Source: Candidatus Saccharimonadota bacterium
GTDB taxonomy: Bacteria; Patescibacteriota; Saccharimonadia; Saccharimonadales; Saccharimonadaceae
Reading direction: 5' to 3'
DNA length: 32,000 nt
Assembly: GCA_016700015.1 (NCBI GenBank)
Contig: CP064995.1
Coordinates: forward strand, 750,001-782,000
In this document: positions 1,535-26,755 of the stretch, piece after piece
Layout of the letters: each line of letters begins with the position of its first letter
Position numbering within the stretch: the stretch's first letter is position 1
Position numbers and translations under genes: made by a program
Notes under the pieces: model-generated
Seen by the model: the letters and a program-made list of their open reading frames with translations, nothing else
Told to the model about the DNA's origin: nothing
The model's database searches: none

Positions 1535-3214
1535 TCAGGGATACATAATCTGCTCAATCTGGCGCGCCACATTGGCAATATAGGCATAGGAATAGCCTTT
1601 AGTCATGATCGTCAAAACATAACTACCCTTTGGCCCATACACGATCGCCGTGTCATGCACGTAGTCCCACAAAAATCCTACTTTGTCGTACACCGTGCCC
1701 TTGACTCCTGTTGGAATACCATAGCGGTAGGTGTGTGTGCTGAGTGAGTGCAACAGGTGGTCACGGTACGCACCGCCTACCAAACTGCCATTTTCCAGAC
1801 CAATCATAAACTTTGTCAGGTCGGCCGCTGTGGTATGTACCGCTTCGGGGTGCGTAAAGGTCGTACCGCTACTAAACCCAAGCGAATAGACATAGTTATT
1901 CATGGCATCGCGTCCGAACTGGCTGAGCCACTCCACAGCACACGGGTTAGTACTGGCAATCGTCATACGGTCGAAACAGCCGCTAACCGTCGTATCGAGC
2001 ATTGGGTCATCCCAGTGCACCGTACCGTCGTCCATAGCCTGGAACAAGCGCTTGGCGACAAATAGCTTGTACGTGCTGGCACTGGGGATACTTTCGTCGG
2101 CCCTGCCGCTGGCACTCCAGCCCTGCCCGCCGAGCTGTTGCACGGCAATCCGCACATTTTGCGTGCTGGTAGCATAGGCTACATAGGCGCGTAGCCCAGC
2201 CTCACTGTGGCTGTAGCTGCGGTTATAGGCTACCCCAGGTGCAACTGGCTGCAGCTGCACGGTAAGGCTAATCGGCGTGTCGGAAAGCAGCGCCGCTTCA
2301 AGTTCCGCTGCAACCGCATCGACGTCGAGCGACTGCCCAGGGGTACCAGCCGTGCGAGCGGTTTCGTTCCCATCAACCACCGCCACTGTGGTCGACACTG
2401 GCGCAACTTTCAGCTTGTCATTTATGGCTTCGATGTACTGTTTGATCGATTCTTTGTTCGCAACAAGCGCTGCCGATGTCGGTTGAGTGTCAATCTGCAG
2501 CCAGCCTGCCTTTGTGGGTGGGTCAGGGGTATAGGTTCCTTTGCCTTCCACAGTAATAGTAATGGGCTTAGCCAGAACTGTTTTGGCCTGCAAGGTGGCA
2601 CTAGCGATTGCTTTGTCGGGCCGCTGGGGAATGAGTGGCTTTGAAGGCACAGCAATGGTAGTTTTTTCACTACTATAGCTACCAGCTATCAGGGCATTGC
2701 GCACCTCACTGGCCGACACATGGTAGCCGTTTTGCGCTGGCGTAACCTCTAGCTGCCCGTTCTTGATTGCTAGCGTTGCATCGACGGGTTCGCTCGATAA
2801 CTGCGCAGCAACATCAGTTGTTACTTTTGTTACTTGCTGACCATCAAAACTCACATCGAGCGTACTCACCTGCGGCCATTTGAATAATAGTGAAAATGGA
2901 ATAAAGCGCTGCCACAAAGGGTACGCGACCAGCTGCTCACTCATGCGCTCGGCATTCACCGACGCACCTAGTTTGGTAAGTGGCGTCACGATCGCTCTAC
3001 TGCCGGTTTTTAGTTCCACATTGGTGCGTTCGAACTGCTGCTGGAACTGGCTCGACAGATCGTTTTGCTTATGCAGTGCTACCCATTCACCGCCCACTTT
3101 TGCAAGCGGCACGGCTGATTCATACGGGTACAGTAGCTGTACGCAAAGAACAAGCAGCAAAATCGCCGCCTGTATCACTGCCAGCCGCTTCACCTTGCGC
3201 ACATGGGGGTGCAT
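1535..3214 (-). CDS. Membrane-anchored serine hydrolase with C-terminal class-A beta-lactamase-like domain
   Basis: 559 aa with an N-terminal TM helix (LAVIQAAILLLVLCVQLLY) and a long extracytoplasmic linker region. The C-terminal domain has S-x-x-K (SASTYK), S-x-N (ASTN) and K-x-G (DKVGF) motifs in canonical order. Confidence 0.8.
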   Translation of the reverse strand: MHPHVRKVKRLAVIQAAILLLVLCVQLLYPYESAVPLAKVGGEWVALHKQNDLSSQFQQQFERTNVELKTGSRAIVTPLTKLGASVNAERMSEQLVAYPLWQRFIPFSLLFKWPQVSTLDVSFDGQQVTKVTTDVAAQLSSEPVDATLAIKNGQLEVTPAQNGYHVSASEVRNALIAGSYSSEKTTIAVPSKPLIPQRPDKAIASATLQAKTVLAKPITITVEGKGTYTPDPPTKAGWLQIDTQPTSAALVANKESIKQYIEAINDKLKVAPVSTTVAVVDGNETARTAGTPGQSLDVDAVAAELEAALLSDTPISLTVQLQPVAPGVAYNRSYSHSEAGLRAYVAYATSTQNVRIAVQQLGGQGWSASGRADESIPSASTYKLFVAKRLFQAMDDGTVHWDDPMLDTTVSGCFDRMTIASTNPCAVEWLSQFGRDAMNNYVYSLGFSSGTTFTHPEAVHTTAADLTKFMIGLENGSLVGGAYRDHLLHSLSTHTYRYGIPTGVKGTVYDKVGFLWDYVHDTAIVYGPKGSYVLTIMTKGYSYAYIANVARQIEQIMYP

Positions 3215-11356: not shown

Positions 11357-12214
11357 TTATCGACGAACAGTACCAGTGGAGTCTTGGGCAGCCTGCCATT
11401 TGGCAATAATCTGACCGATCTGATCATCAGTCATAGCATAAGGATCACCAAATGGATCAACTAGTCCTTCACATTCTAGCGTATCAGCAATGGCTCGAAG
11501 GACCATCCGCCGATCAAGCTTCTTTGCGCCATAGGCAACCTGACGAGTTAACGTATCGTGCGGCGAGAAAATGACACCTCTAGCTGATTTTAGTTCATCA
11601 ACAACAAATACTCGACTATTCTCTATCCCCATACGATCAATCACATGTTGCGTGCCGGTATGTGCGGCGCCCTGGACTACACCAATTCGCTTGCCCGGAT
11701 ACTCCCCGGCGAGAGCTAAGAGTTGATATGCGCACAAATCCTCTCTGCGCCTATCACTCAAACCAGAGTACATTGCGTAATCTATCACCGACCTAAAGAA
11801 CCGTCGATGATCTCCGCTGCGAGCCATAGAGGAGATATTTTCGTCGTATAGATCCTCTCTGTGAGTATCATAGATATCTTTTTGTTCCTTGCGCGCATCA
11901 ATAAGCCTTATTGCCTTTACTGTACCCTGTCTCTGTAGCTCATTTACCAATTTATACACAACATCACTACAAATACCATCAAGTTGTGCAATGGGTATAT
12001 CGCCACATATGACAGATTGCAGAAGCGCTTCATGCTTCGCGACATCTCCCTCTGATACACCGATTGCCTCGAGTGCAACAACCTCACAACCCCGTAGGCT
12101 TTTTGCTATTTCAACGGCCATATCGGGCGTATGCTCACAGTACACAAAATGAAATGACGTGCCAGGCGGCACTTCTTGTTCTTTGTGTTCTGGTTGCGGC
12201 TCACGAATATTCAT
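11357..12214 (-). CDS. Hypothetical protein, possible TraB/GumN/Tiki-superfamily member (paralog 1)
   Basis: 285 aa with ordered motifs FHFVYCEH ... VVALEAIG ... RLIDAR ... RREDLCAYQLL ... IGVVQGAAHTGTQH. These resemble the GTxH / E / RDxxM / VGxGH pattern of the TraB/Tiki family, and the protein is alignable with the next gene. Confidence 0.5.
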   Translation of the reverse strand: MNIREPQPEHKEQEVPPGTSFHFVYCEHTPDMAVEIAKSLRGCEVVALEAIGVSEGDVAKHEALLQSVICGDIPIAQLDGICSDVVYKLVNELQRQGTVKAIRLIDARKEQKDIYDTHREDLYDENISSMARSGDHRRFFRSVIDYAMYSGLSDRRREDLCAYQLLALAGEYPGKRIGVVQGAAHTGTQHVIDRMGIENSRVFVVDELKSARGVIFSPHDTLTRQVAYGAKKLDRRMVLRAIADTLECEGLVDPFGDPYAMTDDQIGQIIAKWQAAQDSTGTVRR

Positions 12215-12235
12215 AGTTGTAGGGTAATTGTCTAC

Positions 12236-12244
12236 ATTGTATCA
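12236..12244 (-). promoter_or_regulatory. Extended -10 box TGATACAAT upstream of the 11357-12214 gene
   Basis: The reverse complement of attgtatca is TGATACAAT, 21 nt upstream of ATG 12214. Confidence 0.4.
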
Positions 12245-12278
12245 TAAAATGTAGAAAAAGTCAATACTCGTGTGAACA

Positions 12279-13022
12279 CTATAGCTTGTTCAGCCTCTCA
12301 ATAAAATAGTTCATCGCTTCGTCAACATCTTCATCAGTTGGTTTACGACCAAACATTTGGCAGCGCAGGGCGCTACAATAGGGACCGAAGTTCGTGATCT
12401 CCTGTGGAAAGAGTGGCAGACGATCGTCGGGATGAGAAATAAACACTCGTGAAGTGCATGCCCGTTTTGCCATATGATGACTCACCCTGGTGTGTATAGA
12501 GCCTTGAAACACCGCGTAGCTCGCAGCGCCAAATTGCTCAATATCGCGCACAAGCTGCTTAGTTACAATGGCATCCCGGGCATTGACTGCCCTCGCGTCG
12601 AGTTCGAGTATGTGCCGCATCAGTTGCCGCAGCGCTACACGATTTTTCCCGGCTTGAACACCATCAACCCATTCACGCAATAGGCAATCAACATAGTGTA
12701 CAAGCTGCGCAACTCTATGATCACGGGAAATATCGAGGAGTAATAGCCGCTTTTCACTGTTTTCGAACTTCGAAGCGACATGACTTATGAACCCATCTTC
12801 TCTCCCTGACGACTTTATAATGTCAGCTCTGCGCAGGTCATCATGTGGGTCAAAAATACGGTTGAGCACACGCTCAATCGCTTCACGCTCATCCATCGAC
12901 TCCCCTACCGCTTCAACCGCGATTACTTCAGCATCGCTTTGGGCAAGCGACTCCACTATAGGTGAATAGTTCACCTTAGTGTGATTTGCCAGCGTGAAAG
13001 TGATGATGGGTCGATGTGACAT
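12279..13022 (-). CDS. Hypothetical protein, possible TraB/GumN/Tiki-superfamily member (paralog 2)
   Basis: Motifs ITFTLANH ... VIAVEAVG ... LLLDISR ... ARDAIVTKQLV ... YAVFQGSIHTRVSH are collinear with paralog 1. Start chosen at ATG 13022 (MSHRPIITF), 7 nt downstream of TGCTACAAT. The track start at 13058 is a TTG. Confidence 0.5.
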   Translation of the reverse strand: MSHRPIITFTLANHTKVNYSPIVESLAQSDAEVIAVEAVGESMDEREAIERVLNRIFDPHDDLRRADIIKSSGREDGFISHVASKFENSEKRLLLLDISRDHRVAQLVHYVDCLLREWVDGVQAGKNRVALRQLMRHILELDARAVNARDAIVTKQLVRDIEQFGAASYAVFQGSIHTRVSHHMAKRACTSRVFISHPDDRLPLFPQEITNFGPYCSALRCQMFGRKPTDEDVDEAMNYFIERLNKL

Positions 13023-13029
13023 GCCGCTC

Positions 13030-13038
13030 ATTGTAGCA
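13030..13038 (-). promoter_or_regulatory. Extended -10 box TGCTACAAT, 7 nt upstream of ATG 13022 (leaderless geometry)
   Basis: The reverse complement of attgtagca is TGCTACAAT. Read directly. Confidence 0.45.
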
Positions 13039-13117
13039 ACCACCCCACCAGATACCAATCATAAGCAGTCAGATAAAAAGTTTACCCGACCGCCCTAACA
13101 CCTATAAGTACTTCTTT

Positions 13118-13693
13118 TTAACCAACCTGTGCTAGAATCTCCGGCATACGCACAAAATCGTCGATAAGTGTTTGCCGCAAGCTACCGTTATACAGTGCTG
13201 CTGCTGGATGATACAGCGGTACGATCACCAGCGCGTGTTCGCCAAACCGGATACGCTTGGGCTGACCATGAATCTGGCTTATGTACATACCCGGCAGAAA
13301 ATATTCCATACTGTGCCGGCCGAGCGTCACCACAACTTTTGGCTGAATAATCTCAAGCTGCTGCAAAAGGTATGGCCAAAAAGCGCGTTTTTCCTCTGGC
13401 TCTGGATCACGATTGTTTGGTGGACGATACTTCACGATATTGGTGATATACACGTCATCGCGCTGCATGCCGGCTGCAGCGAGCATTTCATTGAGGAATC
13501 TGCCACTTGCGCCGACAAATGGTAACCCCTGTTCGTCCTCTGCCTTACCTGGCGCTTCGCCAATGAAGACGATGTCGGCATCGGGGCTGCCATCACCCAT
13601 GACCAGCTGCGTCGCCGACTCACGCAAATGAACGCAGACATCGGCAGCGATGATCTCATCGCGGAGCGCAATAAGTTGGTCTAATTTCGTCAT
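13118..13693 (-). CDS. Uracil-DNA glycosylase, family 4-like
   Basis: 191 aa. Motif A GEAPGKAEDEQGLPFVGASGRFL and motif B LYHPAAAL. The whole protein has a single Cys. A TATACT -10 (13700-13705) lies 6 nt upstream of the ATG. Confidence 0.85.
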   Translation of the reverse strand: MTKLDQLIALRDEIIAADVCVHLRESATQLVMGDGSPDADIVFIGEAPGKAEDEQGLPFVGASGRFLNEMLAAAGMQRDDVYITNIVKYRPPNNRDPEPEEKRAFWPYLLQQLEIIQPKVVVTLGRHSMEYFLPGMYISQIHGQPKRIRFGEHALVIVPLYHPAAALYNGSLRQTLIDDFVRMPEILAQVG

Positions 13694-13708
13694 ATCACTA
13701 GTATAGGG

Positions 13709-13987
13709 CTACTGCCGAGTTTTGCGAGACCGCGACGTATTTTTTGATCTGTGAACGTAGATTGTCCAAAACTTATACTTTATAAAAAGCCAAATAAACC
13801 AGCCGAGGAGAATGATGCTCGAAAAAATTGGGGCAAGGCTTCGTCCGCCCGCTACTCGAGAACCATCCCCCTCTATGCCAAGTATCGGATAAATAACCAC
13901 TGCGTCAACCGCTGCGCCTACCAGGATGATAAATACCAGTATGACGAGCGTATTGGTTATTTCATCCGAGCGGCGTTTTTTGCTCAT
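13709..13987 (-). CDS. Small membrane protein (two predicted TM helices)
   Basis: 92 aa. Hydrophobic segments LVILVFIILVGAAVDAVVIYPIL and IFSSIILLGWFIWLFI with basic termini. A TATACT -10 (13995-14000) lies 7 nt upstream of the ATG. Confidence 0.6.
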   Translation of the reverse strand: MSKKRRSDEITNTLVILVFIILVGAAVDAVVIYPILGIEGDGSRVAGGRSLAPIFSSIILLGWFIWLFIKYKFWTIYVHRSKNTSRSRKTRQ

Positions 13988-14054
13988 GCCGTATAGTATA
14001 TACCATTTCTACACATGGTCAGTGAGTCGGTGCTGTCATGCCGGCCGTAGAGAA

Positions 14055-14252
14055 CTACATTTTAGATTTGCGAGCAAGCATATTCACGCATTTCGTTGCC
14101 CACGCCAGCACAAACGGCCAGGCCCATAGATACATATTCCAACCAACATTACTAGAAACCCGGCAATAAGTAAGCATCTGGTGAATGCCTTCTGTTAATG
14201 ATGCGCCATCGCGCACCGTACCAGGTACGTATATGGCTGCGTAACCATGCAT
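14055..14252 (-). CDS. Small hypothetical protein with hydrophobic C-terminal segment
   Basis: 65-aa ORF whose ATG (14252) directly abuts the stop (14253-14255) of the upstream 45-codon ORF. Contains WNMYLWAWPFVLAWATKCVNML. No homology recognised. Confidence 0.35.
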   Translation of the reverse strand: MHGYAAIYVPGTVRDGASLTEGIHQMLTYCRVSSNVGWNMYLWAWPFVLAWATKCVNMLARKSKM

Positions 14253-14390
14253 CTACTTCTTATTGTTGGTAGGTTTTTGATCGAGTTTGCTCAAGATCCA
14301 GCCAAACAAAAGTGGCAGCACATAGGCGAGCAGCTTCTGCACCGTGGGGCTACGCAGCATAGAACCGATTGTTTGTGTGGGCTTTGCCAT
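14253..14390 (-). CDS. Small single-TM protein (45 aa, below the ORF-track size cutoff)
   Basis: Hand translation: MAKPTQTIGSMLRSPTVQKLLAYVLPLLFGWILSKLDQKPTNNKK*. A TACAAT -10 (14398-14403) lies 7 nt upstream of ATG 14390, the same geometry as neighbouring genes. Confidence 0.4.
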   Translation of the reverse strand: MAKPTQTIGSMLRSPTVQKLLAYVLPLLFGWILSKLDQKPTNNKK

Positions 14391-14461
14391 AGCTACTATT
14401 GTAGCGGAACGACGCAAAAAGAGTAAGTGAAAAACCGAACCAGCAGTTGTACCGATATGGA

Positions 14462-15052
14462 TTAGCTGGTAATAGTAGCCTCTCGACCGAGTCGTGTTTC
14501 GATTGGTGTGTAGCGCACGAATCGATCAGCATCATAAAGGCCTGCGAGAGTGCCGGGGTCCATGACGACAAGTGGCTGGCCATCGCCAAGCACGCTCAGT
14601 GTCGTATGACTATCGAGCGCTACAAAGCTATGGGCGGGTCGGTCATCCCCTGGCCGCTTGGCATAGTAGAACTTGCTAGGCACGAGCGTGTCGGTCGTAC
14701 GGATTGTCCCTGTTTCAAGCACCAAATGCTGATAGTCAAGCGCTGGGAGTAAGCCCGTGTCTAGGCGGCCCGCTAGCGCGAACGGTAGCGTGTGACAGTT
14801 GTAGGCAGGTGCGTGCACGGGGCTCAAAGCGCGCGTTTGCGCGAAATAGCCCACCGCACGCCGTGCCATCTCATCTGCGAGTGAAATAGTTCGGACGTGG
14901 CGTTCGCCCAGCTGATAATACTGGTAGCCACCCTCATGATCCCATATAGGTTCACCTCCGCTACGGAGACCCACTACCCATTGACCATCAATCTGCCCAA
15001 GCTGCTGGTGGACACCGACGACAGGTTTGAGGAATAGTTCCAACTGTGCCAT
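14462..15052 (-). CDS. Hypothetical protein (contains YNCHT motif; possible papain-like/LRAT-like fold, very tentative)
   Basis: 196-aa ORF with clean protein-like sequence. TGATATAAT (15061-15069) lies 8 nt upstream of the ATG. I recognise no family confidently. Confidence 0.7.
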   Translation of the reverse strand: MAQLELFLKPVVGVHQQLGQIDGQWVVGLRSGGEPIWDHEGGYQYYQLGERHVRTISLADEMARRAVGYFAQTRALSPVHAPAYNCHTLPFALAGRLDTGLLPALDYQHLVLETGTIRTTDTLVPSKFYYAKRPGDDRPAHSFVALDSHTTLSVLGDGQPLVVMDPGTLAGLYDADRFVRYTPIETRLGREATITS

Positions 15053-15060
15053 ATCTCTAT

Positions 15061-15069
15061 ATTATATCA
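15061..15069 (-). promoter_or_regulatory. Extended -10 box TGATATAAT, 8 nt upstream of ATG 15052
   Basis: The reverse complement of attatatca is TGATATAAT. Read directly. Confidence 0.45.
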
Positions 15070-15078
15070 CAGTTGGTA

Positions 15079-15174
15079 CTAATAGTCAATCTGCGCGGAC
15101 TGGTCAACACCCTTCATGGTGAGGCTCAGGCGGCCACGCTCGTCGATGCTAGTCAGCAACACGTTGAAGTGACG
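15079..15174 (-). pseudogene. Orphan remnant of a pnp 3' end (last ~25 codons plus a 6-codon extension and stop)
   Basis: 15100-15170 aligns by hand to 15654-15724 (the true pnp 3' end) at about 80% identity (56/70). The remnant translates to RHFNVLLTSIDERGRLSLTMKGVDQSAQIDY*, against pnp ...KVLLTGIDERGRLSLTMKGVDQ*. Within the last 21 aligned codons the differences are nearly all synonymous. Confidence 0.7.
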
Positions 15175-15189
15175 TTATATGCGCGAGCG

Positions 15190-15198
15190 TGATAAAAT
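15190..15198 (+). promoter_or_regulatory. Extended -10 box TGATAAAAT, 6 nt upstream of ATG 15205 (leaderless geometry)
   Basis: Read directly as tgataaaat caaatt ATG. Confidence 0.45.
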
Positions 15199-15204
15199 CA
15201 AATT

Positions 15205-15597
15205 ATGGCAAAAGCTATACCGTTATATCGCTACTATAAGACAGAAACAGGCATTCTGCTTGTGGTAATTTTGATTAATATTGCTAGTCTCTTTCAACAT
15301 CCCCGACACTTCTCATTTGCGGTAATAGTTTTAGGTATTTCCTGTATCCTCGGTTTGACACAAAATAAGAATTTATTAAAGAAAAAACGATTCCGAAAAG
15401 CAGTCTACTTATCCCTTGCTTTTTCTTGCTTATTGATTTTACTCTACACGTACTGGTCTGTACTAGGACCAAGCGGATGTAGTGCGTTCTTTGGAGATCG
15501 CATATCTTGCTACGATACGTTTGGGTATTATGCCTCAGAATTAGTTTTTGTTCCACTAATCTTACTTTTTATTACGTATCCTCTTCGTGGAAAATGA
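15205..15597 (+). CDS. Low-GC integral membrane protein of unknown function (about 4 TM helices)
   Basis: 130 aa with hydrophobic runs (GILLVVILINIASLF, FAVIVLGISCILGL, VYLSLAFSCLLILLY, LVFVPLILLFITY). About 38-40% GC against ~50% in the flanks. It is one of the few plus-strand genes in this stretch and is followed by a strong hairpin. Confidence 0.7.
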   Translation: MAKAIPLYRYYKTETGILLVVILINIASLFQHPRHFSFAVIVLGISCILGLTQNKNLLKKKRFRKAVYLSLAFSCLLILLYTYWSVLGPSGCSAFFGDRISCYDTFGYYASELVFVPLILLFITYPLRGK

Positions 15598-15603
15598 CGT
15601 ATG

Positions 15604-15640
15604 AAAAATGTCCCGAGCGTGCCCGGGACATTTTATTATT
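15604..15640. terminator. Bidirectional rho-independent terminator between the 15205-15597 ORF and pnp
   Basis: An 11-bp perfect stem, aaaatgtcccg (15605-15615) with cgggacatttt (15624-15634), and an 8-nt loop. An A-tract and a T-tract flank it, so a U-run follows on both strands. Confidence 0.75.
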
Positions 15641-15650
15641 CACGCTATAA

Positions 15651-17765
15651 CTACTGGTCAACACCTTTCATCGTCAGGCTCAAGCGGCCGCGTTCGTCGA
15701 TACCGGTCAGTAGCACTTTCACGATTTGGCCTTCCTTTAGTACATCTTCTACCTTTTCGACACGCTTGTCGGAAAGCTGCGAAATATGCACCATGCCATC
15801 GGTCCCGGGCATGATGTTCACAAAGGCACCGAAGTCTTTAATAGTGACAACCTTGCCGGTGTAGACTTTACCGACTTCTGGCTCTTCGGTCAGACCGCGG
15901 ATCCAGTCGAGCGCTCGCTCGATGCTAGCGGTGTCGCTGCTGGCAACTGTGATGAGACCATCATCTTTGATGTCGATCATGGCACCGGTTTCAGCCGTAA
16001 TCTTGTTGATCACTTCCCCGCCCTTACCAATCACTGCACCAATCTTTTCTGGATTGATCTTGATCTTTTCGATACGCGGTGCATACGGGCTTAGCGCTTC
16101 CCGTGGACCAGCAAGTGTTGAGAGCATGTGATCGAGAATGTATTTGCGGCCCGGTGTGCTTTTGCGAATCGCTTCGGCAAGTACTTCTACCGGCAGCCCG
16201 TGGAGTTTCATGTCCATCTGCACAGCTGTGACACCGCTAGCGGTACCAGTGACCTTGAAGTCCATGTCGCCGGCAAAATCCTCGGCATCGGCAATATCAC
16301 TTAGCACGTAGGCTTTGTCGCCATCCATCATCAGCCCCATAGCAATACCGCTAACTGGTGCCTTTAGGGGCACACCAGCGTCCATAAGGGCGAGGCACGA
16401 GCTACAGGTAGCAGCCATGCTGGTGCTACCGTTTTGGCTCATGATTTCGGTGACGCTACGGATTGCGTACGGGAATTCTTCTTCACTTGGCAATACTGGA
16501 ATCAATGCGCGCTCAGCCAAGTAGCCGTGGCCGATTTCGCGTCGTCCCGGACTACCAAGGCGACGAACTTCGCCGACCGTATAGCCTGGGGCATTGTAGT
16601 GGTGCATGTAGCGGCGCTCGCCGTCAGTGATTTCCATGGTATCAACCATCTGGGCAAAGCTCAGCGGCGCTAGGGTGACGATGTTCATCCCTTGGGTGAC
16701 ACCGCGGGTAAACAGGCTGCTCCCATGCGCGCGTGGCAAAAGCCCGACTTCGCTACTAAGGGTGCGGATATCATCGAGACCACGACCATCAGGCCGTTTA
16801 CCATCGGCGACAATACCCTTGCGAACATCTTTGTGAACTGCCATCGTAAAGGCTTCGTCGTATTCATCTTTCACGTCAGCGTAGGTTTCACCTACCTTTT
16901 CGGTCATGGCTTCATGGAATGCCCAGCGGAGTTCATTGACCATCTCGTTGCGCTCCGGGTATGGCGCACGGATCTTTTCGCCCAATTTGCCATCAACCCA
17001 TGCATCAACCGCCGCTTGGATGTCTTCATTTGGCAGCACCAGCGTGTATTCCTGTGCGACAGGAGCAACTTTTGCAGCAAGTTCACGCTGCAAAGCGATT
17101 GCAGGCTGCAGGGCTTTTTGCGCCCAGGCAATACCGTCTATAACCACTTCTTCGTCAACTTCATTGGCACCAGCTTCAACCATCGTGACACCGCTTTCAA
17201 TACCAGCTACCACGAGGTCGAGGTCGCTAGCCGCACGCTCTTCGGCAGTCAAGAATGCCTTAAATTCGCCGGCCACACGACCAACACGCAGACCAGCCAC
17301 TGGACCATCAAATGGCGTACCAGTCAGCATGAGCGCGCTACTGGCAGCGATCATTGCCACCATGTCGGGACGGAAATTCGGATCCATGCTCAGCACACTG
17401 CTGACCACCTGGACTTCTTGGCGATAGCCCTTTGGAAAGAGTGGGCGGATAGGGCGGTCGATCAAGCGGCCAATCAAAATCGCTTCGTCACTTGGGCGGC
17501 CTTCGCGCTTGATAAAGCGACTACCGCTGATTTTGCCGGCTGCATACATTTTTTCTTCGTAGTCGATGCTCAGGGGGAAATAGTCGAGTACAACAGGCTT
17601 AGTACCAACCATCGCCGTGCCGAGCACCACCGTGTCACCGTAGGTAACGAGCACACTGGCGGTGGTGCGAAAGCCCACACGGTTGACTTCGAGTGTTAAT
17701 TTCTTGCCGCAAAAATCGGTAGAAACGGCAATAATATCCTTGCCATTAGGGTTAATGATAGACAT
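15651..17765 (-). CDS. pnp: Polyribonucleotide nucleotidyltransferase (PNPase)
   Basis: 704 aa with two RNase PH domains, a KH domain (KIGAVIGKGGEVINKI) and a C-terminal S1 domain (GKVVTIKDFGAFVNIMPGTDGMVHISQL). AAGGAG Shine-Dalgarno upstream. Confidence 0.97.
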   Translation of the reverse strand: MSIINPNGKDIIAVSTDFCGKKLTLEVNRVGFRTTASVLVTYGDTVVLGTAMVGTKPVVLDYFPLSIDYEEKMYAAGKISGSRFIKREGRPSDEAILIGRLIDRPIRPLFPKGYRQEVQVVSSVLSMDPNFRPDMVAMIAASSALMLTGTPFDGPVAGLRVGRVAGEFKAFLTAEERAASDLDLVVAGIESGVTMVEAGANEVDEEVVIDGIAWAQKALQPAIALQRELAAKVAPVAQEYTLVLPNEDIQAAVDAWVDGKLGEKIRAPYPERNEMVNELRWAFHEAMTEKVGETYADVKDEYDEAFTMAVHKDVRKGIVADGKRPDGRGLDDIRTLSSEVGLLPRAHGSSLFTRGVTQGMNIVTLAPLSFAQMVDTMEITDGERRYMHHYNAPGYTVGEVRRLGSPGRREIGHGYLAERALIPVLPSEEEFPYAIRSVTEIMSQNGSTSMAATCSSCLALMDAGVPLKAPVSGIAMGLMMDGDKAYVLSDIADAEDFAGDMDFKVTGTASGVTAVQMDMKLHGLPVEVLAEAIRKSTPGRKYILDHMLSTLAGPREALSPYAPRIEKIKINPEKIGAVIGKGGEVINKITAETGAMIDIKDDGLITVASSDTASIERALDWIRGLTEEPEVGKVYTGKVVTIKDFGAFVNIMPGTDGMVHISQLSDKRVEKVEDVLKEGQIVKVLLTGIDERGRLSLTMKGVDQ

Positions 17766-17860
17766 ATAGTGTCTCCTTTCTAAAGTGTAGAGAGTAACAG
17801 GTAGTAATTCGCCTACGTCGAACTTCTATCTATCACCATCCACACGTGTTTTCACTTTGT

Positions 17861-17869
17861 AGTATAGCA
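17861..17869 (-). promoter_or_regulatory. Extended -10 box TGCTATACT upstream of pnp (predicts ~90-nt leader)
   Basis: The reverse complement of agtatagca is TGCTATACT. It lies in the 163-nt intergenic region. Confidence 0.4.
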
Positions 17870-17880
17870 AAGAATCTCAT

Positions 17881-17903
17881 AAAAAGGGAGAGGCCTCTAC
17901 TCC
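17881..17903 (-). terminator. Candidate rho-independent terminator after the 17929-18438 gene
   Basis: The minus strand reads GGAGTAGAGGCCTCTCC followed by CTTTTTAT. That is a 6-bp GC-rich stem with one bulge and a GGCC loop, then a U-run. Confidence 0.4.
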
Positions 17904-17928
17904 GAAGGCGCGGCATCATATCTGTTAG

Positions 17929-18438
17929 CTACTGCAGTTCAATGGGTGTGCATAGCGACGCTAAATCATCGGCACTATTGATACCAATCCCATACGGGCT
18001 GTTAGTAGACTTGAGCAATGTGACGTGAGGCTGGCTTAGGCGGATCGCAGGATCAAATCTATCACGCATTGCCCTTTCAAGCGCGCGAAGACCTACAATC
18101 TCAACACTACCTATTAGTGTCATTTGCGTCTCTCCCGCCTGATTGGGCTTACGACATACGTAGTAGTCACCCGTCAGCCCGGCCCACCTGAACTCATGGT
18201 CCTGCTCGGCAAAATATTCCTGCAAAAAGGTGACTAATTCGGCTTCTTTCGCAGCATCGCCCCGTGCGAGTGCACGAAGTTTTGCGATCGATACATGATA
18301 TTCTTCTTTCGGAAGTAGCTCGGTGCCGTCAATCACTAGCGGAGAGATGGCTGGCACACTGTGCGTCACATCAAGCATAGCATAGCCTTTCAGCCCGCCG
18401 TCATACCATACATCTCGCCCAAGTTCTTGCCGACTCAT
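17929..18438 (-). CDS. 2H phosphoesterase-like protein (second, divergent copy)
   Basis: 169 aa with H-x-S-x (YHVSI) and H-x-T-x (PHVTLL) motifs about 90 residues apart. A TACACT -10-like box lies 6 nt upstream of ATG 18438. Confidence 0.5.
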   Translation of the reverse strand: MSRQELGRDVWYDGGLKGYAMLDVTHSVPAISPLVIDGTELLPKEEYHVSIAKLRALARGDAAKEAELVTFLQEYFAEQDHEFRWAGLTGDYYVCRKPNQAGETQMTLIGSVEIVGLRALERAMRDRFDPAIRLSQPHVTLLKSTNSPYGIGINSADDLASLCTPIELQ

Positions 18439-18642
18439 ATAGCTAGTGTACTACGTAAATATATACTCGATCACTTCATCGCCGCGGCGAGAAAGGTTGG
18501 TAATACCGTCAAGTTGTTCTGAATTCCCACCTGTATTGTCTTGTGAATTCATGATACTTTTGTTTATTATATCAGATAGATGCAAATAATGCAACAATTC
18601 GCTGTGATTTATAAGGTTTTTTACTACTTTTGGCTAGTAGCG

Positions 18643-18648
18643 TACAAT
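18643..18648 (+). promoter_or_regulatory. -10 box TACAAT, 6 nt upstream of hpt ATG 18655 (leaderless geometry)
   Basis: Read directly as tacaat agcact ATG. A possible -35 TTTACT lies 17 nt upstream. Confidence 0.45.
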
Positions 18649-18654
18649 AGCACT

Positions 18655-19239
18655 ATGAACGAGCGCTATCGCCTGCTCTTGGACCGAGATGAAGTCAATC
18701 AGCGGATTAGCGAGCTGGCGCGGCGCATCGTTGTTGATCATTTCGACGATGATCCGCTTTTCGTCGGACTCCTGCGCGGTGCCGCCCCTTTTGCAAGTAA
18801 ACTCATGTTTGAAATCGCTCGGCAGCCCGCCGGACTGCACCCTGAGCTTGACTACATGATGGTTAGTACCTACGGTTCATCGCACCACGCCGGTGAACCA
18901 CGCATTGTCACCGACCTTTCACCAACAACAGTGGTCTATGATCGCAAGGTCATCATCGTGGATGACGTGCTTGATCGTGGCATCACTGCAGAGTACGTCA
19001 CGCGACACCTACAGGGGCTTGGCGCCGTCAGTATTGAACTAGCCGTGCTTGCACAGAAAAATGTCGAGCGGGCATACCCTATCGAACCAACCTACTGCGG
19101 CTTCAATGCTGGCGACAAATGGCTAGTCGGTATGGGAATGGATGATGCTCAGAGTGGCAACGAACACTATCGCTGGCTTGAAGAGGTGTGGGAAATCAAG
19201 CGCGACGATACACCGCCGCAGCTGGCGCTACTTGGCTAA
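18655..19239 (+). CDS. hpt: Hypoxanthine(-guanine) phosphoribosyltransferase
   Basis: Start set at MNERYRLLLDRDEVNQRISELARRI. PRPP-binding motif KVIIVDDVLDRGIT. The track start at 18580 adds a 25-residue hydrophobic junk extension. Confidence 0.85.
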   Translation: MNERYRLLLDRDEVNQRISELARRIVVDHFDDDPLFVGLLRGAAPFASKLMFEIARQPAGLHPELDYMMVSTYGSSHHAGEPRIVTDLSPTTVVYDRKVIIVDDVLDRGITAEYVTRHLQGLGAVSIELAVLAQKNVERAYPIEPTYCGFNAGDKWLVGMGMDDAQSGNEHYRWLEEVWEIKRDDTPPQLALLG

Positions 19240-19698
19240 GTTGATGCAGGAAATTGTCGCCGATACAGGACCGAGCTCTACCAGTTCGCCAACTTTTTTT
19301 GCTATGAGCTGTTTTGCAATTGGCGCGTGGCAGCTCACCCATATCACGCCATCGCTATGTTGACCCGCCTTGTGCGTCCAATCACCAGCAATCATATAGC
19401 GCTTGCCGTCGCTCAGCACGACTGTATCGCCAATACCCACAGTTCCCCGCTTCTTTTTAGGTGTCTGCAGGGTGCTCGCACGAATAAGACTACGTAGCTT
19501 GTGTAGTTCTGCCGCTAGCATTGACTGTTTGTCGCGCACTGCTTCAAACGGCGAATTGTCGTGCCAAGTCTCGCTACTTTGGGTAAATGCGTCTTGAAAG
19601 TCTACCCCAAGGTCTTGGATTTCTTTCTCAAGCGTCGCGATACGCTGCTGGGCGTAGGCGCGATCTTCTGGCAATAAGTAAATTTCATGCTTCATCAA
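19228..19698 (-). CDS. GreA/GreB-family transcription elongation factor-like protein
   Basis: 156 aa. N-terminal coiled coil (QQRIATLEKEIQDL ... SETWHDNSPFEAVRDKQSMLAAELHKL) and a C-terminal FKBP-like domain (IGDTVVL ... VSCHAPIAKQLIAKKVGELVEL). AAGGAG Shine-Dalgarno upstream. Overlaps the hpt 3' end by 12 nt. Confidence 0.7.
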   Translation of the reverse strand: MMKHEIYLLPEDRAYAQQRIATLEKEIQDLGVDFQDAFTQSSETWHDNSPFEAVRDKQSMLAAELHKLRSLIRASTLQTPKKKRGTVGIGDTVVLSDGKRYMIAGDWTHKAGQHSDGVIWVSCHAPIAKQLIAKKVGELVELGPVSATISCINLAK

Positions 19699-19804: not shown

Positions 19805-20071
19805 TTACTTGCGTAAACCTAGTTTGTCGAGCACTGCTTTGTAGGCTTCAAAGTCCGTATTTTCGAGGTATTTCAGCAATTTCTTGCGCTTGCCTACCAT
19901 CTGAATCAGCCCGCGGCGCGCCATGTGGTCGTGCTTGTTGGCTTTTAGATGTTCAGTCACCTCTTTGATACGAGCCGTCAAAATCGATACCTGAGCCTGC
20001 GGGCTCCCGACGTCGTTTTTGCCTACCTGAGTCAAAGCAATAGCTTTCGCTTTTTCATCTTTTGTTATCAT
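19805..20071 (-). CDS. rpsO: 30S ribosomal protein S15
   Basis: 88 aa. GSPQAQVSILTARIKEVTEHLKANKHDHMARRGLIQMVGKRKKLLKYL is the canonical S15 sequence. Confidence 0.95.
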   Translation of the reverse strand: MITKDEKAKAIALTQVGKNDVGSPQAQVSILTARIKEVTEHLKANKHDHMARRGLIQMVGKRKKLLKYLENTDFEAYKAVLDKLGLRK

Positions 20072-25834: not shown

Positions 25835-26755
25835 CTAGGGCTGACCATTCCGCGTATAGCTTGCAAGCAACTCAATCTGCCGCACAATCGCTACTAGCGA
25901 CCATGTGTGAGAGTAGTAACCAAAATGCGTCACATTGGTCCGCTTTACATCAATCGGTGGCATAGTATCTGGTACTTTAATCGCATTCACCACCGTCATA
26001 ATACCCTCTTCGGGGCATATGTTGTCTTCGGAACCAATCATTACACTCAGTGGAATACCTTGGTCAGTAACTCTTTGTAGTTTAGACGCCACTAGCGCTG
26101 GGTCTGTACCGGTAATAGCGGCGACATCGTTTCGCAGTGCCAGCGGCCGTGTGAAAAGTGAATAGCCCAGTCCAAGCGCTGCCTGTGCAAGGCCAATCTT
26201 GCCCGGAATGTCTTCTTTACGCAAACTATATAGACCTTCGCGCACACCTTTGCTCATCATAGTATGCGGCCGCTCGCCCGGTGTTAGCCACGCCGGCCCT
26301 GCAAACGATAAGCCCTGTACAGACTCAGGGGTTGCCAGAGCAGCATCGATGATCGCTTCATTGCCCCGGGAGTACCCATGCAGCACTGTTATCCAGTCGC
26401 TACCTTTTTCTTGCAGTATCGCTTCAAGCGCGGTCATGAAGGCTTCGCGGCGATAGGCAGGCTCGTCGCGTACCGACATTGCAATACGGTGGTCGGGATA
26501 TGTGACACCCGCAACTAAAAAGTTTCCGCCATCGGCAAGCGCACTACTAGCCGCCCTCACCATCGCTTCGTCCTCTGCCCATCCCTGTGAATACGGAACC
26601 AGCACATCAGGTGAGCCATAGCGTTGCTGCGTAAAAACTGATGGGTTGAAAATATGCAGAATCATCCGCCCAAATTGGGTTTCAACATCGATCTTTTCTT
26701 CGCGAACGGCCAGCGTATCGCGAGCAAAACTTGTCGCATCAATCACTCGTACCAT
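25835..26755 (-). CDS. Alpha/beta-fold hydrolase
   Basis: 306 aa with nucleophile elbow HGYSRGN (G-x-S-x-G). The overall length and pattern fit an alpha/beta hydrolase. A TATAAT (26765-26770) lies 9 nt upstream of the ATG. Confidence 0.65.
   Translation of the reverse strand: MVRVIDATSFARDTLAVREEKIDVETQFGRMILHIFNPSVFTQQRYGSPDVLVPYSQGWAEDEAMVRAASSALADGGNFLVAGVTYPDHRIAMSVRDEPAYRREAFMTALEAILQEKGSDWITVLHGYSRGNEAIIDAALATPESVQGLSFAGPAWLTPGERPHTMMSKGVREGLYSLRKEDIPGKIGLAQAALGLGYSLFTRPLALRNDVAAITGTDPALVASKLQRVTDQGIPLSVMIGSEDNICPEEGIMTVVNAIKVPDTMPPIDVKRTNVTHFGYYSHTWSLVAIVRQIELLASYTRNGQP

Follow-up and report, generated by a model that had tools for sequence, protein, structure and literature searches.

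Why does the 3' end of a housekeeping gene occur twice, a few hundred nucleotides apart, in a genome as small as that of Candidatus Saccharimonas? The question is raised by a 32,000-nucleotide (nt) stretch of such a genome (GenBank assembly GCA_016700015.1, contig CP064995.1, positions 750,001 to 782,000 of the forward strand), which we refer to as the window and whose coordinates are used throughout. The gene in question, pnp (15651–17765, minus strand), encodes a polynucleotide phosphorylase (PNPase) of 704 amino acids with Pfam matches to RNase_PH (two copies), KH_1 and S1, and appears intact and functional. A repeat scan of the window returned a single outstanding direct repeat (67 nt, 82% identity, 554-nt spacing). 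One copy (15653–15719, minus strand) is the pnp 3' end in present use, comprising codons ~682–704 and the stop; the other (15099–15165), in direct orientation relative to the first, belongs to a stranded fragment that we call the orphan. The reading that we favour, with moderate confidence, is that the orphan is a scar left when recombination inserted DNA here, with a homologous exchange at the pnp border and an illegitimate joint at the opposite one, and not the trace of a mobile element.

An earlier, preliminary description of this DNA had reported that the last ~23 codons of pnp are present twice, 554 nt apart, that the part nearest the stop is identical at 42 of 48 positions, and that the differences are mostly synonymous, implying that both copies derive from functional alleles. 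These claims hold when the alignment is computed. The similarity is significant (~9e-14 such repeat pairs expected by chance in the whole window, by a binomial estimate). The 66 aligned nt contain 12 differences, so distributed that 8 codons differ synonymously and 2 non-synonymously (N/K and S/G), and the stop-proximal identity of 42/48 was recovered. The longest exact run shared by the two copies is 13 nt, one of them having later been overwritten. The pnp product ends in ...KVLLTGIDERGRLSLTMKGVDQ, and the orphan, translated in frame, reads ...NVLLTSIDERGRLSLTMKGVDQSAQIDY, with an in-frame stop ahead of it and no start codon. The same arrangement was recovered at 99.95–100% identity in at least five independent assemblies, which excludes an assembly artefact. 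As it now stands the orphan has no evident function or role.

The closest relative of the window genome found here, which we call species E (labelled Candidatus Saccharimonas sp.), was reached via one protein cluster of orf196, the open reading frame (ORF) that lies beyond the orphan (14462–15052, minus strand). The sample from this species comprised 24 contigs of up to 595 kb, with empty-site loci at L098, L100–L111, L113, L114 and L116. Its PNPase is 93.2% identical to that of the window and its gene 81.6–82.2% identical at the nucleotide level, above the best value (77.9%) among a comparison set of 80 other species-representative Saccharibacteria loci (L001–L080). The species E gene encodes 706 amino acids ending in ...KVLLTGIDERGRLSLTMKGVDQSA (...GVDQSA), a terminus resembling the short extensions of 1–3 residues after the Q in other relatives. 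The orf196 gene follows only 38 nt on, and the gap holds the same TTGACT-17-TATAAT promoter that lies beyond the orphan in the window. We looked for the terminator hairpin and the membrane protein gene (mem130) that separate the two repeat copies in the window, and neither is present between pnp and orf196 in the species E loci read. Because species E has an uninterrupted series of pnp, promoter and orf196, the terminator, mem130 and the mem130 promoter are, by this comparison, an insertion relative to the species E site. The preliminary description had looked to related genomes for an empty site, and these 24 contigs supply one.

The species E locus also identifies most of the orphan. Its right part (15091–15147, minus strand; IDERGRLSLTMKGVDQSA plus the former stop) equals the species E pnp terminus except for a C at 15093, which turns TAG into CAG. 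The segment running from ATCGAC to GCG (15147–15094) does not differ from that terminus (0/48 mismatches), the first mismatch coming at offset 54; 13 empty-site loci were aligned with it, and window and species E locus L110 differ at only 3 of 248 nt. Because another species ends its working pnp gene with this very sequence, the orphan is, as judged from these alignments, a displaced, once-functional pnp end, as the preliminary description had supposed. That description had placed the ancestral stop six codons after the Q, and this has to be revised: the TAG stop of species E aligns with codon CAG of the orphan (15091–15093), so the ancestral stop lay two codons after the Q.

The remainder of the orphan does not resemble species E in this way. 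Its left arm (TTC AAC GTG TTG CTG ACT AGC, encoding FNVLLTS; 15148–15168, minus strand) is pnp-like and in frame, and matches no known allele. Of 24 positions compared, 11 disagree with species E pnp and 10 with the pnp of its own genome, and the best match among the 80 other species is 16/24. Neither the exact junction nor an allele encoding NVLLTSIDERGRL was found when Joint Genome Institute (JGI) metagenome contigs were scanned for them. The switch between the two parts is abrupt, falling at AGC|ATCGAC, with 11/24 mismatches to species E on its left and 0/48 on its right (Fisher p = 8e-7). The same division of the last 72 nt of the window's own pnp gives 6/24 mismatches to species E on the left and 6/48 on the right, a comparison that has no power. 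By these counts, the left 18–24 nt of the orphan are a third, unmatched pnp allele.

The inserted material consists of one gene and its signals. The mem130 gene (15205–15597, plus strand) was delimited as an ORF of 130 amino acids with four hydrophobic segments in its hydropathy profile, and is convergent with pnp. Its G+C content (GC, 0.37) and that of its third codon positions (GC3, 0.32) are the lowest of the 26 ORFs in the window (neighbouring GC3 values are 0.38–0.59, mostly 0.44–0.59), in keeping with the low-GC cassette bearing a promoter and a polytopic membrane protein gene of the preliminary description. In the diverged 5' part of mem130, the ratio of non-synonymous to synonymous substitution rates (dN/dS) between the window and a second haplotype of the same species (type H, described below) is 0.18, which identifies mem130 as a real gene. 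A promoter-like site, GTGACG-18-TAAAAT with a TG element (15169–15198, plus strand), has its −35 element on the junction between cassette and orphan and its −10 element ending 6 nt before the ATG. This layout is frequent in the genome, which points to a related donor for the cassette. Between the convergent ends of pnp and mem130 lies a hairpin (15605–15634, both strands) with 14-nt arms that are 93% complementary and an A-run and a T-run at its sides, which would terminate both genes. It folds well on either strand, with energies of −18.2 and −21.9 kcal/mol and z scores of −4.0 and −5.1, so that the bidirectional terminator proposed earlier stands, with a stem measuring 13–14 bp rather than 11.

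Relatives of mem130 are few. There is one close relative (90% amino acid identity, that of type H), and a full HMMER scan of 1.84 billion representatives found five remote ones with 30–41% identity and four transmembrane segments, the invariant features of the family being P-x-HFS, W, C-x3-FG-x4-C and E. None of the remote relatives matched any pnp-neighbourhood locus outside this species. The single one with a readable contig (L117, 1307–1729, from forest soil) lies beside NUDIX, HTH_26 and DUF2975 genes, on a contig with no pnp-like fragment. The search for other copies of the protein that the preliminary description had envisaged thus yielded no second copy, only these five remote relatives away from pnp. 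Neither mem130 nor orf196, orf54, orf65 or orf92 has a Pfam, PHROGs or PADLOC match, and for mem130 and orf196 Pfam is empty even at E = 10. On present sequence data mem130 is a near-orphan gene, seen at this locus in one species only.

The age of the insertion can be judged from type H, which is represented by five conspecific contigs (L087, L088, L089, L099 and L112). Window type and H type differ by an island allele (13340–15345) whose ends are strain-to-strain breakpoints. Over 23921–15346 the H contigs, L087 among them, agree with the window at 100% of positions, and over 15345–15168 they diverge from it by 27%, and L112 shows dense mismatches over 13610–13340 and then ~1%, the sequences converging at ~13340; the breakpoints thus lie at 15345/15346 and ~13340 between strains that are otherwise 99–100% identical. 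Type H has the same pnp end, terminator, mem130, both promoters and the same junctions. Its orf196 allele is 69% identical to that of the window, with a synonymous divergence (dS) of ~2.0, near the pnp dS between the window species and species E; this fits vertical divergence. The gap between the two promoters is ~26 nt in H as against 81 nt in the window. These 26 nt keep TCAAAG... and ...ACCAGT where the two ends of the orphan lie, and the window orphan bears GTGTTG at either edge of the 55 nt missing in H, an arrangement that would allow a slippage deletion between the two GTGTTG repeats. H thus possesses the cassette but keeps a mere ~26 nt of the orphan, which makes it likely that the duplication is old and that a single insertion is common to both island alleles.

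If the insertion is old, the pristine coding appearance of the orphan has to be explained otherwise, and the explanation is provided by a block that the window shares with species E. This block (14236–15147, minus strand) comprises the right part of the orphan, the orf196 promoter, orf196 and orf54, and is 92.3–93.3% identical between the two at the nucleotide level. The corresponding values elsewhere are 81.5% (pnp), 82.5% (RNase J), 79.6% (FtsK), 72% (TruB region) and 67% (hpt/orf169 region); dS is 0.175 in the orf196 block and 1.52 in pnp. The orf196 protein is restricted to three clusters at 90% identity (two besides its own, among 5.8 billion proteins), and because so lineage-restricted a gene is far less diverged than the essential genes on both sides, these divergence values show that the block was exchanged between the window species and species E long after the species split. 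On this reading the orphan looks pristine because the E-like import renewed it, and not because the insertion was recent.

The same block also moves between sublineages of species E. Two sublineages of that species differ by 6% in pnp and by only 1–1.7% in the block, a discordance which indicates that the block spreads by recombination with the last ~25 pnp codons as its left arm. We also observed that the block (pnp tail, orf196 and orf62) is 96–99% identical among lineages with a 6% difference in pnp or a ~20% difference in UDG (L098, L101, L113 and L115), L115 having a different UDG. In its divergence values this pattern looks like a gene-specific sweep across species via recombination. The UDG gene of the window (13118–13693) is itself a mosaic, with 13500–13322 being 95–100% identical to species E between flanks of 50–70%, and from ~13340 leftward the window agrees with the H haplotype. 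At least three recombination breakpoints fall within 2.5 kb, a density that shows, as far as alignments can, that recombination with diverged DNA is routine at this locus.

Placing these observations in order, the following history can be proposed. As comparison with species E indicates, ancestral pnp would have ended in ...GVDQSA*, with the orf196 promoter three bases beyond, a state kept in species E. DNA from a related Saccharibacterium carrying pnp, a terminator and a convergent mem130 would then have been imported, recombining homologously inside pnp and being joined illegitimately at its other end ~23 codons before the resident stop. By this event pnp would have gained a substitute 3' end and a terminator of its own, mem130 would have arrived with its promoter, and the resident ~23 codons would have been moved 554 nt downstream to become a dead fragment between back-to-back promoters. 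The event would be old, judging from H, in which the orphan is down to ~26 nt although both diverged island alleles hold the cassette. Later, as the divergence statistics show, the part of the orphan that encodes IDERGR, through orf196 and orf54, was exchanged with species E by homologous recombination, the orphan probably serving as the left homology arm for the E-like exchange. Most recently, within-species recombination has evidently erased the differences between strains in pnp and in the 3' two-thirds of mem130. In species E, transcription of pnp may read through into orf196, whereas pnp of the window would be closed by its own terminator; orf196 would retain its promoter, so that mem130 and orf196 would be driven by back-to-back promoters with the orphan between them.

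Saccharibacteria are naturally transformable, taking up DNA and recombining it via the com system (PMC10633639), and a combination of one-sided homologous and illegitimate recombination has been proposed for the orphaned 3' regions of Rhs and type VI secretion system (T6SS) loci (PMC5361080). Several points nevertheless weigh against our proposal. Protein and JGI contig searches found no donor genome with a pnp–terminator–mem130 arrangement outside this species. The polarity of the change is a matter of parsimony from one sister species, the distant species having neither mem130 nor orf196, and natural competence is known from other Saccharibacteria and not from this genus. The relic in H is short, its homology to pnp consisting of its position and ~14/18 matches, and the old age of the event is deduced from it. 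Finally, if the segment were circular, a single pnp-like frame would run unbroken from the left arm of the orphan into the pnp 3' end now in use, as would also be expected from a site-specific attP or from a Campbell-type single crossover. The allele switch within the orphan is explained by the later E-like exchange, so that its chimerism needs no extra assumptions.

Among the alternatives, the one that survives best reverses the order of events, and we regard it as unlikely rather than implausible. Here mem130 would already have stood beside pnp, and the orf196 block would have come later from an E-like donor together with ~70 nt of pnp tail. Homology would have anchored it at the udg border, an illegitimate joint would have attached it behind the promoter of mem130, and the orphan would never have been the terminus of this lineage itself. 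The stretch from the right part of the orphan to orf54 is clearly recent and E-like, a further E-like tract lies in UDG (13500–13322), and the block is mobile between genomes, as its 96–99% identity among sublineages with a 6% pnp difference attests. H, however, has a 31%-diverged orf196 in the same place, with its promoter and a pnp-like relic, which implies that the adjacency of mem130 and orf196 long predates the E-like import. Species E has orf196 without mem130, making orf196 the older neighbour by parsimony, and the left arm lacks the E-like character that it should show had the donor fragment brought the whole orphan.

A site-specific cassette has to be weighed against the outcome of the searches for mobility functions. 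Apart from mem130 the cassette holds no ORF, and no recombinase was found in it or in the neighbouring hypothetical ORFs scanned (11357–19698); Pfam likewise detected no integrase or recombinase among ten ORFs from the larger pnp–udg gaps of relatives. Pfam gave no transposase, the only inverted repeat inside the cassette is the terminator hairpin, and the direct repeat, at ~70 nt and diverged, is unlike a short identical target-site duplication. There was no phage match for the cassette DNA and no plasmid match for the mem130 protein. A six-frame hidden Markov model search found no second pnp C-terminus in the 80 species-representative loci, and tblastn found no match to mem130, orf196, orf92 or orf169 in them. 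Neither mem130 nor orf196 has toxin or immunity matches, and both pnp ends encode the same PNPase S1-domain tail. The earlier statement that integrase and transposase are lacking agrees with the Pfam, PHROGs and PADLOC scans. Of its two interpretations, an element integrating into the 3' end of a gene or recombination with a diverged relative, the second fits best, the scar and the displaced terminus hold, and the mobile element is not supported, with no recombinase found and only one locus. As far as these searches reach, nothing points to an element that moves by itself or integrates at a specific site.

One could still envisage a 554-nt unit carrying an attP-like mimic of pnp in a circle, with its recombinase elsewhere, or the remnant of a larger element. 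The direct repeats flank the insert exactly, the left arm and the pnp 3' end would give an uninterrupted frame in the circle with the switch at AGC|ATCGAC, mem130 is a compositional outlier, an empty site exists, and the junction is at the same point in both haplotypes. We nonetheless hold this to be improbable, more so than the reversed order: besides the missing recombinase (in the cassette, in the ORFs of 11357–19698 and in the ten gap ORFs of relatives), the cassette occurs at one locus in one species with the remote mem130 relatives away from pnp, no orphan pnp end turned up in the 80 other species, the allele switch is explained equally well by later E-like recombination, and the promoter style is that of the host lineage. 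A bolder version, to which we would give very little credence, makes the pnp terminus of Saccharimonas a recurrent, sequence-specific entry point for tiny integrase-less cassettes that bear a pnp-tail mimic and are moved either in trans or by the machinery of competence and recombination. The window and H types would then have arisen by separate insertions at one and the same nucleotide, with the left arm as the cassette-borne half of an attP-like site.

A loss in place of a gain is about as doubtful as that version. If the common ancestor had possessed both cassette and duplication, species E could have lost both by recombination between the 70-nt repeats, with regeneration of pnp. Such an event would yield an exact empty site, and recombination is frequent here; yet the same insertion would still be needed earlier, so that the timing alone changes, mem130 stands near pnp in no other species examined, and the ...QSA* of species E resembles the short extensions after the Q in relatives. 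Lastly, the shortness of the repeat is the one thing that speaks for chance similarity, an in-situ tandem duplication with drift or an assembly artefact, and we attach practically no weight to these, given ~1e-13 expected chance pairs, a right part that is another species' pnp end, mostly synonymous differences and the agreement of at least five independent assemblies.

A structure like that at pnp would be produced by homology-facilitated illegitimate recombination in the course of natural transformation (de Vries & Wackernagel 2002, Prudhomme et al. 2002, Meier & Wackernagel 2003; cited in PMC5361080, PMC3240628). By analogy, a linear donor with one-sided homology would give exactly the arrangement described here. 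A closely similar outcome characterizes polymorphic toxin loci. Displacement of 3' ends with the formation of orphans is reportedly described for Rhs, CdiA and T6SS effector-immunity loci in work by Jackson et al. from 2009 and Kirchberger et al. from 2017 (PMC5361080), and is attributed to homology-facilitated illegitimate recombination. As in those loci, the gene body runs on into an acquired 3' end followed by a new gene, its former 3' end is retained just beyond as a fragment with no promoter next to the former neighbour, and diverged alleles are later shuffled by homologous recombination without an integrase. Unlike them, pnp encodes a housekeeping RNase and not a polymorphic toxin, both ends encode the same protein sequence so that no diversity is generated, mem130 is convergent and not an immunity partner, and there has been one displacement and no array.

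Two other processes bear comparison. Phages, integrative and conjugative elements and genomic islands insert into the 3' ends of tRNA, tmRNA and protein genes, whose 3' end is replaced by that carried in attP. The pnp locus is like their products in that repeats derived from the 3' end of the target border the insert, the gene is restored, its former end is displaced, and a relative (species E) has an empty site. It differs in that the insert is 554 nt with one gene, has no integrase or excisionase and does not recur elsewhere, and in that its repeats now share 82% identity and no exact run longer than 13 nt. In Campbell-type insertion-duplication, a circular donor with an internal gene fragment gives two chimeric copies around the insert. 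The orphan is likewise chimeric, but this process needs a circular double-stranded donor of at least ~0.55 kb, and the later E-like import is the simpler explanation.

The interval in which the orphan lies is variable across the phylum. In 62 of the 80 species loci pnp is followed by udg at an interval of 3 to 5480 nt, and the cargo between them differs per species (subtilase, a second RNase J, helicase, FHA protein, DUF2130, SocA/Panacea-HTH protein, Type ISP/MmeI-like methyltransferase, glycoside hydrolase and proline-rich membrane proteins). In the window, ~540 nt between orf54 and UDG (13700–14236) hold orf65 (14055–14252) and orf92 (13709–13987). Neither species E nor the H haplotype has this stretch, and assembly L083 departs from the window left of 13922, an indication, from alignment, of a further indel or variant in the pnp–udg interval.

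The displaced neighbour orf196 (QQS21694.1) is a conserved hypothetical protein that in species E is the direct downstream neighbour of pnp. It is 95% identical in amino acids to species E protein P0002, and its dN/dS of 0.11–0.13 reflects purifying selection. His15, His39, Asn-Cys-His 85–87 and His141 are invariant, a pattern that we take to recall Cys-His hydrolases of the LRAT or NlpC/P60 type. An AlphaFold2 model from a three-sequence alignment has a predicted local distance difference test score (pLDDT 52) too low for searching by fold. The orf196 promoter (15061–15089, minus strand; TG element, 11/12 match) has a −35 element starting 3 nt past the ancestral pnp stop. An inverted repeat (15027–15053 and 15063–15089; core CCAACTGTG / CACAGTTGG) brackets its −10 box and the first orf196 codons, and is kept at 7/9 positions in the H haplotype; by its position this repeat could be an operator.

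A promoter placed close to the start codon is a wider trait of the window. Many genes have a TAnnnT −10-like hexamer 6–9 nt before the ATG and no Shine-Dalgarno sequence (upstream of 1535–3214, 13118–13693, 17929–18438, 19805–20071, 25835–26755, 14462–15052 and 15205–15597), and clear GGAG-type sites precede pnp, RNase J and the S20 gene. The layout suggests that genes with a close −10 element and no Shine-Dalgarno sequence are transcribed as leaderless mRNAs.

The pnp locus reveals no new mechanism or function; it adds another case to a process already known, in which recombination displaces the 3' end of a gene, and does so in the unusual setting of a housekeeping gene in an ultrasmall genome. 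It also carries a caution, in that a pseudogene fragment that looks freshly coding may be old and renewed via a live copy in another species. Its interest lies in recording, at single-nucleotide resolution, how accessory genes enter and move in the tiny genomes of Saccharibacteria without mobile-element machinery. The 3' end of a housekeeping gene acts as a homology arm, the displaced end keeps a record of the event, and a block of orphan genes crosses species boundaries faster than the surrounding core genes diverge. This fits the natural competence recently found by experiment in the phylum, and suggests that the pnp–udg interval is a natural landing site for incoming DNA.

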